NCBI RefSeq assembly: GCF_988242995.1 | Contig: NZ_OZ547043.1 | Length of the DNA stretch: 64,000 nt | Direction: 5' to 3' (one strand) | Shown: piece by piece, positions 15,978-20,092 of the stretch | Layout: the number at the start of each line of letters is the position of its first letter | Position numbering within the stretch: the stretch's first letter is position 1 | Translations under genes and position numbers: made by a program | The notes under the pieces: model-generated | Databases searched by the model: none | The model's input: the letters and a program-made list of their open reading frames with translations, nothing else | What the model was told of the DNA's origin: nothing

Positions 15978-16541
15978 ATGGAACGTTGCGGCTGGGTGAG
16001 TCAGGACCCGCTTTATATTGCCTACCATGATAATGAATGGGGCGTGCCTGAAACTGACAGTAAAAAACTGTTCGAAATGATCTGCCTTGAAGGGCAGCAG
16101 GCTGGGTTATCGTGGATCACCGTCCTCAAAAAACGCGAAAACTATCGCGCCAGCTTTCATCAGTTCGATCCGGTGAAGGTGGCTGCAATGCAGGAAGAGG
16201 ATGTCGAAAGACTGGTACAGGACGCCGGGATTATCCGCCATCGCGGGAAAATTCAGGCAATTATTGGTAATGCGCGGGCGTACCTGCAAATGGAACAGAA
16301 CGGCGAACCGTTTGCCGACTTTGTCTGGTCGTTTGTCAATCATCAACCACAGGTGACACAAGCCACAACGTTGAGCGAAATCCCTACATCTACGCCCGCC
16401 TCCGACGCTCTATCTAAAGCCCTGAAAAAGCGTGGTTTTAAGTTTGTTGGTACCACAATCTGTTACTCCTTTATGCAGGCATGTGGGCTGGTGAATGATC
16501 ATGTGGTTGGCTGCTGTTGCTATCCGGGAAATAAACCATGA
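15978..16541 (+). CDS. tag: DNA-3-methyladenine glycosylase I (Tag), 187 aa
   Basis: Start trimmed from 15741 to ATG at 15978 (MERCGWVSQDPLYIAYHDNEWGVP...); Cys-rich zinc-binding C-terminus. Confidence 0.92.
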   Translation: MERCGWVSQDPLYIAYHDNEWGVPETDSKKLFEMICLEGQQAGLSWITVLKKRENYRASFHQFDPVKVAAMQEEDVERLVQDAGIIRHRGKIQAIIGNARAYLQMEQNGEPFADFVWSFVNHQPQVTQATTLSEIPTSTPASDALSKALKKRGFKFVGTTICYSFMQACGLVNDHVVGCCCYPGNKP

Positions 16542-16978
16542 TTCGGGAAGCGCAACGTTCAGAACTCCCCGCGATCCTCGAACTGTGGCTGGAAAGTACA
16601 ACCTGGGGGCATCCCTTTATAAAAGCGAATTACTGGCGTGATTGCATTCCGCTGGTGCGGGATGCCTATCTTGCCAACGCGCAAAACTGGGTCTGGGAAG
16701 AAGACGGTAAGTTTCTCGGTTTTGTCAGCATTATGGAAGGCCGATTTCTGGCTGCAATGTTTGTCGCACCGAAGGCCGTCAGACGCGGTATTGGTAAGGC
16801 GCTGATGCAGTATGTGCAGCAGCGCCATCCCCATCTGATGCTGGAGGTTTATCAAAAAAATCAACCGGCGATAGATTTCTACCATGCGCAGGGTTTTCAC
16901 ATTGTCGACTGCGCATGGCAGGATGAAACCCAACTACCCACCTGGATTATGAGCTGGCCGGTGGTTCAAACGCTGTAA
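16538..16978 (+). CDS. yiaC: GNAT-family N-acetyltransferase YiaC
   Basis: 146-aa ORF with acetyl-CoA-binding motif (RRGIGKALM); ATG overlaps tag stop; 3' end overlaps bisC 3' end. Confidence 0.88.
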
Positions 16979-19280
16979 GTGTCAGTTCCGGACCGTTGTA
17001 TTTTTCCAGCCATGCCAGCGCCGTATTACCCGCACAGCCATTCCCCAGCCGCGAGCTGGGGAGATCTTTGGTCAGAACGTTCACCGCGCCGTTTTTACAA
17101 ATACCGTCAGCGGTTAAATCCAGATCCGGCCAAGCCCCTTCATGAATACAAATCACGCCAGGTTTAATTCCCTCGCTAATGACCGCTCCGGCAAGAATTT
17201 GCCCGCGTGCGTTCCACAACCGAACAATATCGCCATCTTGTATGCCGCGCGCCTGGGCATCGTCAGGATGAATGGTGACAGGCTCACGATTTGCCACCGC
17301 GTACAATTCGCGCAGAGAACTGTAATTCAGCTGGCTGTGCAGACGATGTGCCGGATGAGCAGAAAGTACCTGCAACTGTTCCGGTTCGGCATTGCCCTGC
17401 CATTCGTCCGGCTCCAGCCACATTGGATGCCCAGGGCAATCCGGATAAGCGTAATCGGCAATACGCTGCGAGAAGATTTCAATCTTGCCGCTGGCGGTTT
17501 TTAATGGATGCGCCTGCGGATCGCGGCGAAAATCGGCGAAGCGAATAAACCGCTCGCTGTCCGGGTTTTCCGGCATCTCAATTAACTGGTTGGCTTGCCA
17601 GAACTCAGCAAATGGCGGCAATTCAACCTGCTGGCTTGCCCCGCGCTGCCGGGCAACGTTATAAAACGTTTCCAGCCATTGCAGCTCACTTTTTCCTTCC
17701 GTAAACCGCGCATAGCCGCCCTTCTCCCAACGTTCACTCAACTCGGCAAAGACATCAAAATCATTACGCGCTTCATAACGTGGCGGCACCACTTGTTTCA
17801 TCGGCACCAGATGCTGATTGCTGTAATCGCCGGTCATGGTGAGATCATTACGCTCAAACGAAGTGGTCGCAGGCAGAACGATATCCGCGTGTTTCGCCGC
17901 AGCCGTCCAGAAACATTCGGAGATAACCACCAGTTCCGGTTTTTGCCAGGCACGGATCAGGCGATTGGTATCCTGATGATGAGTAAAGTTGGCACCGCCC
18001 GCCCACCAGATAAAACGAATATCCGGGAAATGTCGGTTCATACCGTTGTGTTGATATGCGCCACCAGGGTTTTCCAGTGCTTCAACAATGCGGGCAACAG
18101 GGATTTTATCTACCGCATCGGTGCCGCCAGGCAAGCTGCCCTGCATGGAAGAGAGCACCGCAGAACGCCGCGTGGGGTTACCACCATTGGCAAAATGATA
18201 AGAAAGACCAAAACCGCCGCCGGGTGTGCCGATTTGCCCCAACATTGCCGCCAGCGTGACGATCATCCAATGTTTTTGCTCACCAAACTGTTGACGCTGC
18301 ATTCCCCAGCCAGCCATCAGCATGGTCGTGTTTTGGTGGAAAAGAGCCGCCAGCTCGCGGATTTTCTCTGCGTTAACCCCACAAATCCCTGCCGCCCATT
18401 CGGCGGTTTTGGCTATTCCGTCACTCTCGCCCAGCAAATAAGAGGCGAAGACGGCATAACCGGTGGTGCAACGCGCCAGAAACGCTTCGTCGTGCCAACC
18501 ATTTTCCACCAACGTATGGGCGATCCCCAGCATCAGCGCAACATCGGTGCCCATGTGCGGTGCCACCCACTCCATTTTATCGCCAAAGAAATCGACGGTT
18601 TCCGATCGCATTGGATCAATGCAGATCAGCTTTTTCCCGCTGTCACGCAGTGCGGAAAAGTAAGAAAGCCCCTGCTCATCGGATGCATTCCAAGCAATTT
18701 TCAGCGTATTGAGTGGATTAGCACTCCACAGCACCACAACATCGCTATGTTCCAGCACCAGCGGCCAACTGGTTTGCTGTTGATAAACTTCGCTGCCACC
18801 CACGACATACGGCATGATCGCCTGTGCCGCGCCGGTCGAATAATCCCCCAGATGCCCGGTATAACCGCCTGCCAGCGCCATATAGCGTTGTAATAATGTC
18901 GAGGCCTTATGCAGCACGCCGTTTGAACGCCAGCCGTAGGAACCAGCAAAAATCGATGCCGGACCATAAGCCTCACGAATGCGTTTATGTTGTTGGTGAA
19001 TAAGCTCCAGCGCCTCATCCCAACTCACACGAACAAATTCATCCTGCCCGCGAATGCCTTGCGGTTTTTCCGGTGACGCAAGAAAGCCTTTGCGCACCAT
19101 TGGAAATCGTACCCGCGTATTGCTGTGAACCTGGTCGCGAACCGCGCTCTGCAAGGAGTTTTCCATTCCTGTGACTAACGCGCCACGCGAGCTAAACACG
19201 GTTTCGCCGTCGGTTTCAACCAGCATCGGCCCCCAGTGGGCGGCAGTCAGAACGGAATATCGTGAGGATGAGTTGGCCAA
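16947..19280 (-). CDS. bisC: Biotin sulfoxide reductase BisC (molybdopterin oxidoreductase), 777 aa
   Basis: 777-aa DMSO-reductase-family ORF; first codon is TTG (plus-strand caa at 19278-19280) so a non-ATG start is implied. Confidence 0.9.
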
Positions 19281-19432
19281 ACCGAAGACTCCTGAAAGGT
19301 TAGATGTATTGAGCAGTTAAATATTACTTACAAATTTCCGAGTATTCCCAGGAATAATCTTCATGTTCACGCGGCATAATCTCCCGCCACGGAACCCGTG
19401 GCAAAGAATAAAAAGGTTATTAAGGATTAACA

Positions 19433-20092
19433 ATGAAGAAACGTGTTTATCTTATTGCCGCAGTAGTGAGTGGCGCTCTGGCGGTATCTGGCTGCACAAC
19501 TAACCCTTACACCGGCGAACGCGAAGCAGGTAAATCTGCTATTGGCGCAGGTCTGGGCTCTCTCGTGGGCGCGGGTATTGGTGCGCTCTCTTCTTCGAAG
19601 AAAGATCGCGGTAAAGGCGCGCTGATTGGCGCAGCAGCAGGCGCAGCTCTGGGCGGCGGCGTGGGTTATTACATGGATGTGCAGGAAGCGAAGCTACGTG
19701 ACAAAATGCGCGGCACTGGTGTTAGCGTAACCCGCAGCGGGGATAACATTATCCTCAATATGCCGAACAATATGACCTTCGACAGCAGCAGCGCGACCCT
19801 GAAACCGGCAGGCGCTAACACCCTGACCGGCGTGGCAATGGTGCTGAAAGAGTATCCGAAAACGGCGGTTAACGTGATTGGTTATACCGACAGCACGGGT
19901 GGTCACGACCTGAACATGCGTCTCTCCCAGCAGCGTGCGGATTCCGTTGCCAGCGCGTTGATCACCCAGGGCGTGGACGCCAGCCGCATCCGTACTCAGG
20001 GCCTTGGCCCGGCTAACCCAATCGCCAGCAACAGCACCGCAGAAGGTAAGGCGCAAAACCGCCGTGTAGAAATTACCTTAAGCCCGCTGTAA
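19433..20092 (+). CDS. yiaD: OmpA-family lipoprotein YiaD
   Basis: Lipoprotein signal with lipobox LAVSGC, Gly-rich region, C-terminal OmpA peptidoglycan-binding domain (NRRVEI). Confidence 0.9.
   Translation: MKKRVYLIAAVVSGALAVSGCTTNPYTGEREAGKSAIGAGLGSLVGAGIGALSSSKKDRGKGALIGAAAGAALGGGVGYYMDVQEAKLRDKMRGTGVSVTRSGDNIILNMPNNMTFDSSSATLKPAGANTLTGVAMVLKEYPKTAVNVIGYTDSTGGHDLNMRLSQQRADSVASALITQGVDASRIRTQGLGPANPIASNSTAEGKAQNRRVEITLSPL

Follow-up and report, generated by a model that had tools for sequence, protein, structure and literature searches.

The TTG start codon of bisC and its tail-to-tail overlap with yiaC in Escherichia coli

Introduction

The gene for the cytoplasmic Mo-bisMGD biotin/methionine sulfoxide reductase BisC raises two questions in the stretch of Escherichia coli DNA analysed here (64,000 nt of contig NZ_OZ547043.1, assembly GCF_988242995.1; hereafter, the window). 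The 777-aa reading frame of bisC (16947..19280, minus strand) opens with a TTG codon, and its 3' end runs into that of the convergent gene yiaC (16538..16978, plus strand), which encodes a GNAT lysine N-acetyltransferase of 146 aa. Does translation of BisC start at the TTG or at the methionine found 18 codons further on, and is the overlap of the two gene ends a regulatory arrangement or a by-product of two genes that abut? The first of these questions has a history, as the annotation of K-12 carried a wrong bisC start until 2014. We examined both questions by sequence and family analysis, by comparison of orthologous loci and by reading published ribosome-profiling and transcript data against the locus.

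Results and discussion

The yiaC-bisC locus

Both coding regions were identified as open reading frames and agree with family profiles, Pfam domains and the RefSeq annotation. BisC scores 1101.5 bits with the NCBIfam profile TIGR00509 (bisC_fam), above the family cut-off of 1017.55, and its residues 13-775 match profile positions 1-768 of 772. In Pfam, it matches Molybdopterin (PF00384, 306.5 bits) and Molydop_binding (PF01568, 87.6 bits), and the N-terminal domain Molybdopterin_N (PF18364) was detected over residues 12-52 at 24.2 bits, just below its cut-off of 26. K-12 BisC is a cytoplasmic protein with biotin sulfoxide and free Met-S-sulfoxide reductase activity, and the window gene, which encodes a BisC-type Mo-bisMGD S/N-oxide reductase by its family profile, is predicted to share this activity. 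YiaC matches Pfam Acetyltransf_1 and the equivalog profile NF007853 (267.6 bits, cut-off 125; residues 1-145 on profile positions 1-145 of 146). The ATG of yiaC overlaps the stop codon of tag (ATGA).

The layout is the one annotated in K-12. In the K-12 RefSeq record (NC_000913.3), bisC (b3551, NP_418007.3) occupies 3714061..3716394 and yiaC (b3550) 3713652..3714092 in the same gene order, and K-12 shares with the window a bisC of 2334 nt with a TTG start and AGGAG at -8, a yiaC of 441 nt and the 32-bp overlap. The two differ by strain-level substitutions only (96.9% DNA identity between K-12-lineage genomes and a 3.1-kb query); over the K-12 region read, BisC of the window has Val at residue 36, where K-12 has Ala. 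The nearest strain is JNEC-KY178 (99.3%), and the RefSeq annotation of this closest genome gives the same layout. A search of 5426 complete E. coli genomes found the stretch with yiaC-bisC in 5419. Among the 12 matches listed, 11 carry annotations of both genes at the matching site; the exception among them, BE104, has 31% of the query covered and no bisC, and is according to its published description an MC4100 derivative with deletions of methionine sulfoxide reductase genes. Because the K-12 and closest-genome annotations agree and the stretch recurs in nearly all complete genomes, the layout is neither chance nor an artefact of gene calling. We are highly confident that the tag-yiaC / bisC locus of the window is the ordinary one, already annotated in E. 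coli, with the bisC start and the overlap as described here.

The bisC start codon

The TTG initiation codon (19278..19280, minus strand), which was read directly and is identical in K-12, follows a Shine-Dalgarno sequence AGGAG (19289..19293, minus strand) with an 8-nt spacer, in the context tttcAGGAGtcttcggtTTGgccaac. It is the first ATG, GTG or TTG past the upstream in-frame stop, and the open reading frame has no in-frame start further upstream. The next in-frame ATG is codon 19 (19224..19226, minus strand), which served as the start in the 2006 annotation and is not used. The sequence-only reading had claimed that the 777-aa frame opens with TTG and has no in-frame ATG until Met-19, and both the open reading frame and the sequence bear this out. 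A Shine-Dalgarno sequence 5-10 nt 5' of an in-frame NTG, with no better start upstream, is the arrangement looked for in Shine-Dalgarno-led UUG initiation, and it is the arrangement found at bisC. UUG starts are decoded by the initiator fMet-tRNA. Translation of BisC initiates at the UUG at 19280-19278, placed there by the strong AGGAG 8 nt 5' of it; the initiator Met is probably cleaved off before Ala-2, and Met-19 is an ordinary internal residue.

Published start-site data for K-12 point to the same codon. In the tetracycline ribosome profiling (TetRP) of Nakahigashi et al. (2016), bisC is row 52 of Table S2, where its start is moved from the 2006 position to a TTG that lies 54 nt further upstream. 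The TetRP signal at the TTG was 78.6, 80.1 and 91.1, and that at the former start, Met-19, was 0, 0 and 0. Ribosome profiling was among the checks that the sequence-only reading had proposed, with initiation only at the internal Met as the outcome that would speak against it; the published K-12 data show the opposite. The TetRP start agrees with the 2014 re-annotation of bisC, whose 2006 GenBank record used Met-19, and ybeZ and yliA were likewise shifted to TTG in the same study. The bisC entry in Table S2 carries no reporter-fusion result (its confirmation column reads '6. nt', which we take as not tested), and a BisC N-terminal peptide is absent from both that table, where the peptide column is blank, and the TRAINSPOTTER supplements. 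These measurements come from K-12, with which the window strain is identical over the 102 nt upstream of the TTG; when the first 20 bisC codons are added to these 102 nt, two synonymous sites are the only differences.

We compared the start of bisC among 67-69 orthologues from other Enterobacteriaceae genera (75-96% aa identity). The start codon was TTG at 63-65 loci, GTG at 4 and ATG at none, and GGAG was found 6-8 nt 5' of the start codon in every scorable orthologue. The first ~9 residues of BisC are variable. Residues 11-18 (LTAAHWGP) are invariant among 69 orthologues and form part of the family fold, and the position of Met-19 is occupied by Ile in 13 and by Val in 2 of the 69. This comparison provides independent support, drawn from sequence, for the 2014 correction of the K-12 start.

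The N-terminus given by the TTG start is also in keeping with the relatives of BisC of known structure. The periplasmic DMSO/TMAO reductases DorA, TorA and TorZ (type III Mo-bisMGD enzymes; 1EU1, 1DMR, 7L5I and 1TMO) are homologous to BisC over its full length, with E-values down to 1e-280. The alignment with the DMSO reductase chain 1EU1, which has 780 residues, pairs BisC residues 10-775 with residues 8-778 of that chain and places residue 10 of BisC on its residue 8. The 823-residue DMSO reductase chains are longer than 1EU1 by ~40 residues at the N-terminus, and in them BisC residue 10 corresponds to residue ~47. The profile matches of BisC to TIGR00509 and Molybdopterin_N, which begin at residues 13 and 12, are in line with this start as well. 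TorA, DorA and TorZ carry a Tat signal peptide, whereas the cytoplasmic BisC has none, and the N-terminus of the 777-aa BisC matches the mature N-terminus of the periplasmic DMSO reductases. TorZ-like paralogue loci, which we found in Citrobacter, Trabulsiella and Entomohabitans, differ from bisC in having a long N-terminal extension and no adjoining yiaC. Taken together, the TTG start of bisC is settled in the literature, a conclusion supported by the published ribosome profiling and by conservation.

The lack of any ATG start among the 67-69 orthologues, which represent many genera and begin with TTG or GTG, would also be expected if selection, rather than mutational inertia, held the weak UUG start in place to keep BisC synthesis low, for example because the supply of Mo-bisMGD is limited. 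UUG and GUG starts yield 10-100% of AUG output, and the conservation of start position 1 (94%) is reached by only 2.9% of 171 four-fold sites. However, for the codon to remain a start, the T at this position can change only by transversion (to A or G), and in a count restricted to transversions, 17% of the four-fold sites equal or exceed its conservation, which is not significant. Moreover, about three independent switches to GTG indicate that the start codon is not frozen. We consider such selection possible but doubtful, and since the fair, transversion-only comparison is not significant, we do not claim it.

Two further readings give Met-19 a role in initiation. The TTG might be the main start while Met-19 gives rise to a minor isoform with a truncated N-terminus: many E. 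coli genes have dual start sites according to Nakahigashi et al., and bisC is weakly expressed, so that a minor site could escape detection. We nevertheless regard dual initiation as very unlikely, as the reads at Met-19 are zero in each of the three samples, no GGAG-type Shine-Dalgarno sequence precedes it, the residue is not conserved and the shorter isoform would be without part of the N-terminal domain. That translation begins at Met-19 only, giving a 759-aa protein and making the TTG an annotation artefact, is barely credible even though ~83% of E. coli genes start with ATG, more than with any other codon, and the 2006 record used this one, as this start is already contradicted by the published TetRP data, its upstream sequence (ccactgggggccg) contains no AGGAG- or GGAG-type Shine-Dalgarno, 15 of the 69 orthologues have Ile or Val in place of this Met and the invariant LTAAHWGP, which aligns with solved family structures and profiles, would be removed.

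The TTG start and the yiaC-bisC overlap are already known. The finding is correct but ordinary, because the reference annotation already contains both features, and published ribosome-profiling and RNA-seq data support them. Its importance beyond annotation hygiene is small: a non-ATG start that was wrong in the K-12 annotation until 2014 can be recovered from the sequence by a first-pass reading.

The overlap between yiaC and bisC

The ORF list and the sequence place the last 32 nt of both genes on the same segment (16947..16978), which confirms the earlier claim of a convergent 32-bp overlap between the two coding regions. Within the overlap, the first codon positions of the two genes lie opposite each other, and the second positions of either gene lie opposite the third positions of its partner. 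The tail-to-tail overlap was found in 71 of 71 orthologous loci, with a length of 23 bp (7 loci), 32 bp (31 loci) or 38 bp (33 loci); it persists across the Enterobacteriaceae sampled, and a TTG or GTG start together with the convergent overlap is common to every genus sampled. The BisC tail is constant in length and ends in ...PP(A/T/P)xx in all 71 loci, and it is the stop of yiaC that moves to give the three length classes. Opposite the bisC stop and its last three codons lie the yiaC codons Ile137-Trp140 (16946..16957, plus strand), the end of the last GNAT beta-strand. Of these YiaC residues, M138 and W140 do not vary, and the conservation of I137 is 90% or higher. In the AlphaFold2 model of YiaC (mean pLDDT 95.4), this strand spans residues 133-140 and is followed by a low-confidence tail, residues 141-146.

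These features suggest how the overlap may have come about. The two genes would simply abut tail to tail, with the last beta-strand of YiaC (...TWIMSW) encoded opposite the last BisC codons, and the short, floppy YiaC tail would read on to a chance stop, the position of which would be set by synonymous codon choice in bisC. Because the wobble position of each gene faces the second codon position of the other, the arrangement is hard to change. The sequence-only reading had raised transcriptional interference or antisense coupling as a possible consequence of the overlap. We infer that a constrained by-product of two abutting genes explains the overlap as well as a regulatory account does, and that the overlap probably has no dedicated regulatory role. 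Against the by-product view, the universal conservation of the overlap and a compensatory synonymous change in a nearby hairpin leave room for a selected function at the RNA level.

This GC-rich hairpin (17041..17063, plus strand), which was found by a terminator-like scan and also as inverted repeat I3, consists of TTCCCCAGC-CGCGA-GCTGGGGAG followed by ATCTTTGG and lies 63 nt beyond the yiaC stop, within the bisC coding region. Its stem has 8-9 bp, of which 6 are GC pairs, and its tail AUCUUUGG is a weak U-tract. The hairpin is kept in most genera and lost in Klebsiella/Raoultella, and one of its pairs swaps from C-G (32) to G-C (8) through synonymous bisC changes. It is a candidate 3'-end hairpin of the tag-yiaC transcript; termination in this area is reported as Rho-dependent (Adams et al.).

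Overlapping transcripts of yiaC and bisC are required by the overlap of the coding regions, and they are reported from MG1655 RNA-seq. The pair is named among 165 E. coli convergent excludons (MG1655 excludome; ExcludonFinder catalogue 2025), where at least 50% of 58 RNA-seq data sets place it in this class. Supplementary file 2 of Adams et al. (2021) lists a Rho region at K-12 position 3714344 (plus strand), antisense to bisC, with a Rho score of 7.3 (p = 5.5e-14). Mapped by its offset from the bisC 3' end, this region of Rho-dependent termination of plus-strand transcription falls at ~17230 of the window, a coarse position, as the method uses 800-nt windows. Plus-strand transcripts run ~250 nt antisense into bisC before they are terminated by Rho. 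Overlapping transcription of the two genes is documented by these data. Each mRNA has to cover the 3' end of the other gene, and Rho curtails plus-strand read-through into bisC. The Term-seq table of 3' ends in Adams et al. lists neither gene, perhaps a sign of weak expression, the TERMITe supplements contain no 3'-end entry for them, and in the literature on bidirectional terminators and SEnd-seq we found nothing specific to this locus.

If the conserved overlap were a functional excludon, transcription of tag-yiaC and of bisC would mutually interfere, either because RNA polymerases collide or because RNase III cuts the mRNA duplex, and an operon for DNA repair and acetyltransferase functions would be coupled inversely to the oxidative-stress-induced bisC. 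The catalogue entry, the antisense extension into bisC, the presence of the overlap in every locus, the compensatory synonymous changes in the hairpin near the bisC 3' end and the inducibility of bisC by H2O2 and HOCl are all in line with this. However, the label 'excludon' is trivially earned by any overlapping CDS pair, and E. coli is reported to have 75 convergent CDS pairs that overlap. Conservation of the overlap is expected in any case from the double coding constraint, with wobble facing second positions and the last YiaC strand lying in the overlap. The hairpin is lost in two genera, and the missing Term-seq 3' ends tell against the reading, with the reservation on weak expression given above. 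In general, weak transcription of convergent genes makes collisions rare. We believe that mutual interference at this locus is unlikely. Classical excludons, following the concept of Sesto et al. (2013), have convergent overlapping transcripts and bring about mutually exclusive expression of functionally opposed genes through a long antisense transcript. The yiaC-bisC pair shares the transcript overlap with them and is likened to them by this alone, and we do not file it as a functional excludon.

A more elaborate proposal joins the overlap, the hairpin at 17041-17063 and the Rho-limited antisense read-through into an ancient, selected cis-antisense module that, together with the weak UUG, would keep BisC low except under oxidative stress and would couple bisC inversely to tag-yiaC. 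We find this combination quite unlikely. If the overlap or the hairpin did modulate expression, the locus would provide one more case of cis-antisense control, here of an oxidative-stress repair enzyme, and would bring no new principle.

Other elements near the two genes

An Rfam scan of 16400-19700 gave no match at E<=1. RNA folds at the gene ends did not differ significantly from shuffled sequences on either strand (z = -0.57 and -1.68 for plus and minus, respectively), and the terminator-like scan and folding found no canonical intrinsic bisC terminator on the minus strand. A 432-aa open reading frame antisense to bisC (17595-18893) has no Pfam match and was treated as a shadow ORF. Upstream of bisC, a predicted promoter-like element, TTGCCA-17-GATTAT (19376..19404, minus strand), is conserved across genera and contains an inverted repeat at 19386-19402.

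Identity and annotation of the locus

Megablast of window positions 16400-19500 identified the locus as E. coli tag-yiaC / bisC / yiaD, with matches in 5422 of 5426 complete E. coli genomes (5419 at ≥80% query coverage). Identity reached 99.3% among E. coli genomes and was 96.9% for K-12-lineage genomes. Among the 12 matches listed, bisC, yiaC, tag and yiaD were annotated under the match in 11; the exception, for which no bisC is given, was BE104, according to its published description an MC4100 derivative with methionine sulfoxide reductase genes deleted. BisC scored 1101.5 bits against TIGR00509 bisC_fam (cut-off 1017.55) and YiaC 267.6 bits against the equivalog NF007853, and Pfam matched the Molybdopterin, Molydop_binding and GNAT domains. 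The ORF listing places bisC at 16947..19280 (–, 777 aa, TTG first codon) and yiaC at 16538..16978 (+, 146 aa). The nearest genome is annotated identically, and K-12 (RefSeq NC_000913.3: bisC 3714061..3716394, NP_418007.3; yiaC 3713652..3714092) has the same 32-bp overlap and the same AGGAG-N8-TTG. Both the TTG start and the overlap are therefore in the current reference annotation and already known. At 16538-16541, ATGA combines the tag stop codon with the yiaC start codon; 4-nt overlaps of this kind are typical for translationally coupled operon genes.

Initiation of bisC at a TTG codon

The bisC start lies in the upstream context ...tttcAGGAGtcttcggtTTGgccaac..., where a Shine-Dalgarno AGGAG (19293-19289, –) stands 8 nt ahead of the TTG at 19280-19278 (–), the first start-capable codon past the upstream in-frame stop. 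The sequence-only reading that no in-frame ATG precedes Met-19 (codon 19; 19226-19224, –) was borne out by the ORF listing and the sequence. It had also proposed ribosome profiling as a check, and such data exist for K-12: the tetracycline-inhibited ribosome profiling (TetRP) of Nakahigashi et al. 2016 (PMC4909307) located initiating ribosomes in this strain. Their Table S2 (row 52) gives for bisC a new TTG initiation site 54 nt (18 codons) upstream of the 2006 start, with TetRP depths of 78.6, 80.1 and 91.1 compared to 0, 0 and 0 at the 2006 site, which is Met-19; this contradicts initiation at the internal Met only. The 2006 annotation was corrected in U00096.3, in agreement with the ribosome data, and the TetRP start differs from the 2014 record by zero. 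Table S2 contains no N-terminal peptide or reporter-fusion result for bisC, and the TRAINSPOTTER N-terminomics supplements contain no bisC N-terminal peptide.

Scanning one genome per species yielded 80 loci with ~70 orthologues (75-96% identical to the window protein) from Escherichia, Citrobacter, Salmonella, Enterobacter, Klebsiella, Raoultella, Kosakonia, Kluyvera, Lelliottia, Leclercia, Phytobacter, Pluralibacter, Pseudocitrobacter, Trabulsiella, Shimwellia, Cedecea and others. In all scorable orthologues, GGAG was found 6-8 nt ahead of an in-frame TTG (63-65 loci) or GTG (4 loci), placed 11-15 codons before an invariant His-Trp-Gly; none had an ATG with a Shine-Dalgarno sequence as the bisC start. 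Residues 2-10 vary and residues 11-18 (LTAAHWGP) are invariant. Of 69 orthologues, 13 have Ile and 2 have Val in place of Met-19, so this position cannot be the start in those species. BisC residues 10-775 align to a Rhodobacter DMSO reductase chain of 780 residues, 1EU1 (residues 8-778), which lacks ~40 N-terminal residues present in the DMSO reductase chains of 823 residues and which we read as the mature enzyme. The TIGR00509 and Pfam Molybdopterin_N profiles begin at BisC residues 13 and 12, so that a start at Met-19 would, judging from these alignments, cut into the conserved N-terminal domain. The TTG start thus has the support of published experiments together with strong comparative evidence, the latter new in this analysis.

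A TTG start is unremarkable as such, since ~3% of genes in E. coli begin with UUG, and output from UUG or GUG is 10-100% of that from AUG (Hecht et al.). Its retention across the family at first seemed striking, as only 2.9% of 171 four-fold sites equalled the conservation of start-codon position 1. The fair yardstick is transversions, the sole type of change able to keep a start codon at this position, and when the purine/pyrimidine class alone was counted, 17% of four-fold sites were at least as conserved. For this reason we make no claim of selection for a weak start, which we consider a modest possibility.

Three loci carry an interrupted or shortened bisC, either pseudogenes or assembly errors: L065 (Leclercia adecarboxylata NCTC13032; frameshift within codons 1-15), L078 (Citrobacter amalonaticus AUH_CA_2023_1; only 60 codons open) and L005 (Escherichia sp. 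MOD1-EC7003; 762 aa). Citrobacter, Trabulsiella and Entomohabitans have a second paralogue that is ~67% identical (loci L066-L072, L074, L075, L077). This TorZ-like paralogue has an N-terminal extension that is long and open, and carries RWG where BisC orthologues have HWG. No yiaC adjoins it, and the overlap is therefore specific to the bisC orthologue context.

Conserved elements upstream of bisC

The bisC-yiaD intergenic region contains a conserved block, TTGCCAC-loop-GTGGCGG-N-GATTATGAC, with an inverted repeat at 19386-19402 inside a promoter-like element (19376-19404, –) that has no Rfam match. Pairing in the repeat is maintained by changes in both arms (GTCAC/GTGAC in Klebsiella/Raoultella, GCCGCG/CGCGGC in Pluralibacter, ACCGC/GCGGT in Shimwellia), and the loop varies freely. 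Since the AT-rich hexamer of the block reads CATAAT on the plus strand, immediately upstream of the repeat, the element could act either as an operator within the spacer of the bisC promoter or as the 5'-terminal hairpin of yiaD mRNA. Two more conserved blocks, GAAAATTCC and AAATTTGTAA, lie in the bisC 5' leader (19300-19375, –; loci L015-L058 of the cross-genus scan). In genera other than Escherichia, Citrobacter and Salmonella, a ACACCTGCA block similar to the 16S rRNA anti-SD sequence lies ~15-20 nt upstream of the Shine-Dalgarno sequence, with which, from its sequence, it could pair.

The tail-to-tail overlap of yiaC and bisC

The ORF coordinates confirmed the 32 bp of convergent coding sequence shared by yiaC and bisC (16947-16978, both strands). 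All 71 orthologous loci have such an overlap, of 23 bp (7 loci), 32 bp (31) or 38 bp (33). The BisC tail has constant length, ends in ...PP(A/T/P)xx in 71/71 loci and aligns with the end of DMSO reductase chains; bisC is therefore not the gene that moved. The overlap classes are set by the yiaC stop position, after ...WQAD, ...WQADQTP or ...WQADQTPSA. In the AlphaFold2 model of YiaC (mean pLDDT 95.4), the last beta-strand spans 133-140 and the tail (141-146) is of low confidence; conservation is complete at M138 and W140 and ≥90% at I137. By this model, 11 nt of the overlap (16947-16957), facing the bisC stop and last three codons, are predicted to encode structural YiaC residues, and the other 21 nt a floppy tail. 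The third codon position of either gene lies opposite the second position of its partner, and no change in this phase is silent in both genes, a constraint that suffices to explain the conservation of the overlap. Such arrangements are not rare: Huvet and Stumpf counted 75 pairs of convergent CDS that overlap in E. coli.

Transcription across the overlap

The yiaC-bisC pair is among 165 convergent excludons found in ≥50% of 58 MG1655 RNA-seq data sets (ExcludonFinder, PMC12288877), a listing close to tautology for genes with overlapping coding regions. A Rho termination region reported by Adams et al. 2021 for K-12 position 3714344 (+; Rho score 7.3, p 5.5e-14) corresponds to ~17230 in the window, ~250 nt beyond the yiaC stop. 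As this region is antisense to bisC, tag-yiaC transcription continues into bisC in antisense orientation until Rho halts it. The Term-seq table of the same study lists no yiaC or bisC 3' end, and we found no canonical bisC terminator on the minus strand and no Rfam match in the locus. Transcript overlap is documented; the antisense coupling raised by the sequence-only reading is a hypothetical and rather unlikely possibility.

A GC-rich hairpin (17041-17063, +; 8-9 bp, weak U-tract) is located within the bisC coding sequence, 63 nt beyond the yiaC stop. It is kept in most Enterobacteriaceae genera and lost in Klebsiella/Raoultella, Shimwellia and Cedecea. One pair shows a compensatory switch from C-G (32 sequences) to G-C (8) via synonymous changes in Leu and Gly codons of bisC, and 87.5% of cells were paired compared to 83.1% in shuffles, with 0/500 shuffles matching the observed value. 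We conjecture that this hairpin may stabilise the tag-yiaC mRNA at its trimmed 3' end.

Inside yiaC, an inverted repeat (16879-16921, +) has 13-nt arms, CTACCATGCGCAG and CTGCGCATGGCAG, that are 92% complementary around a 17-nt loop. On the bisC strand it lies ~30-70 nt downstream of the bisC stop and is followed after ~20 nt by a U7 run (16852-16860); it is not a canonical terminator. Antisense within bisC, a TTG-initiated ORF of 432 aa (17595-18893, +) gave no Pfam match at E≤0.1; most likely it is a shadow frame, free of stops, in a GC3-rich gene.
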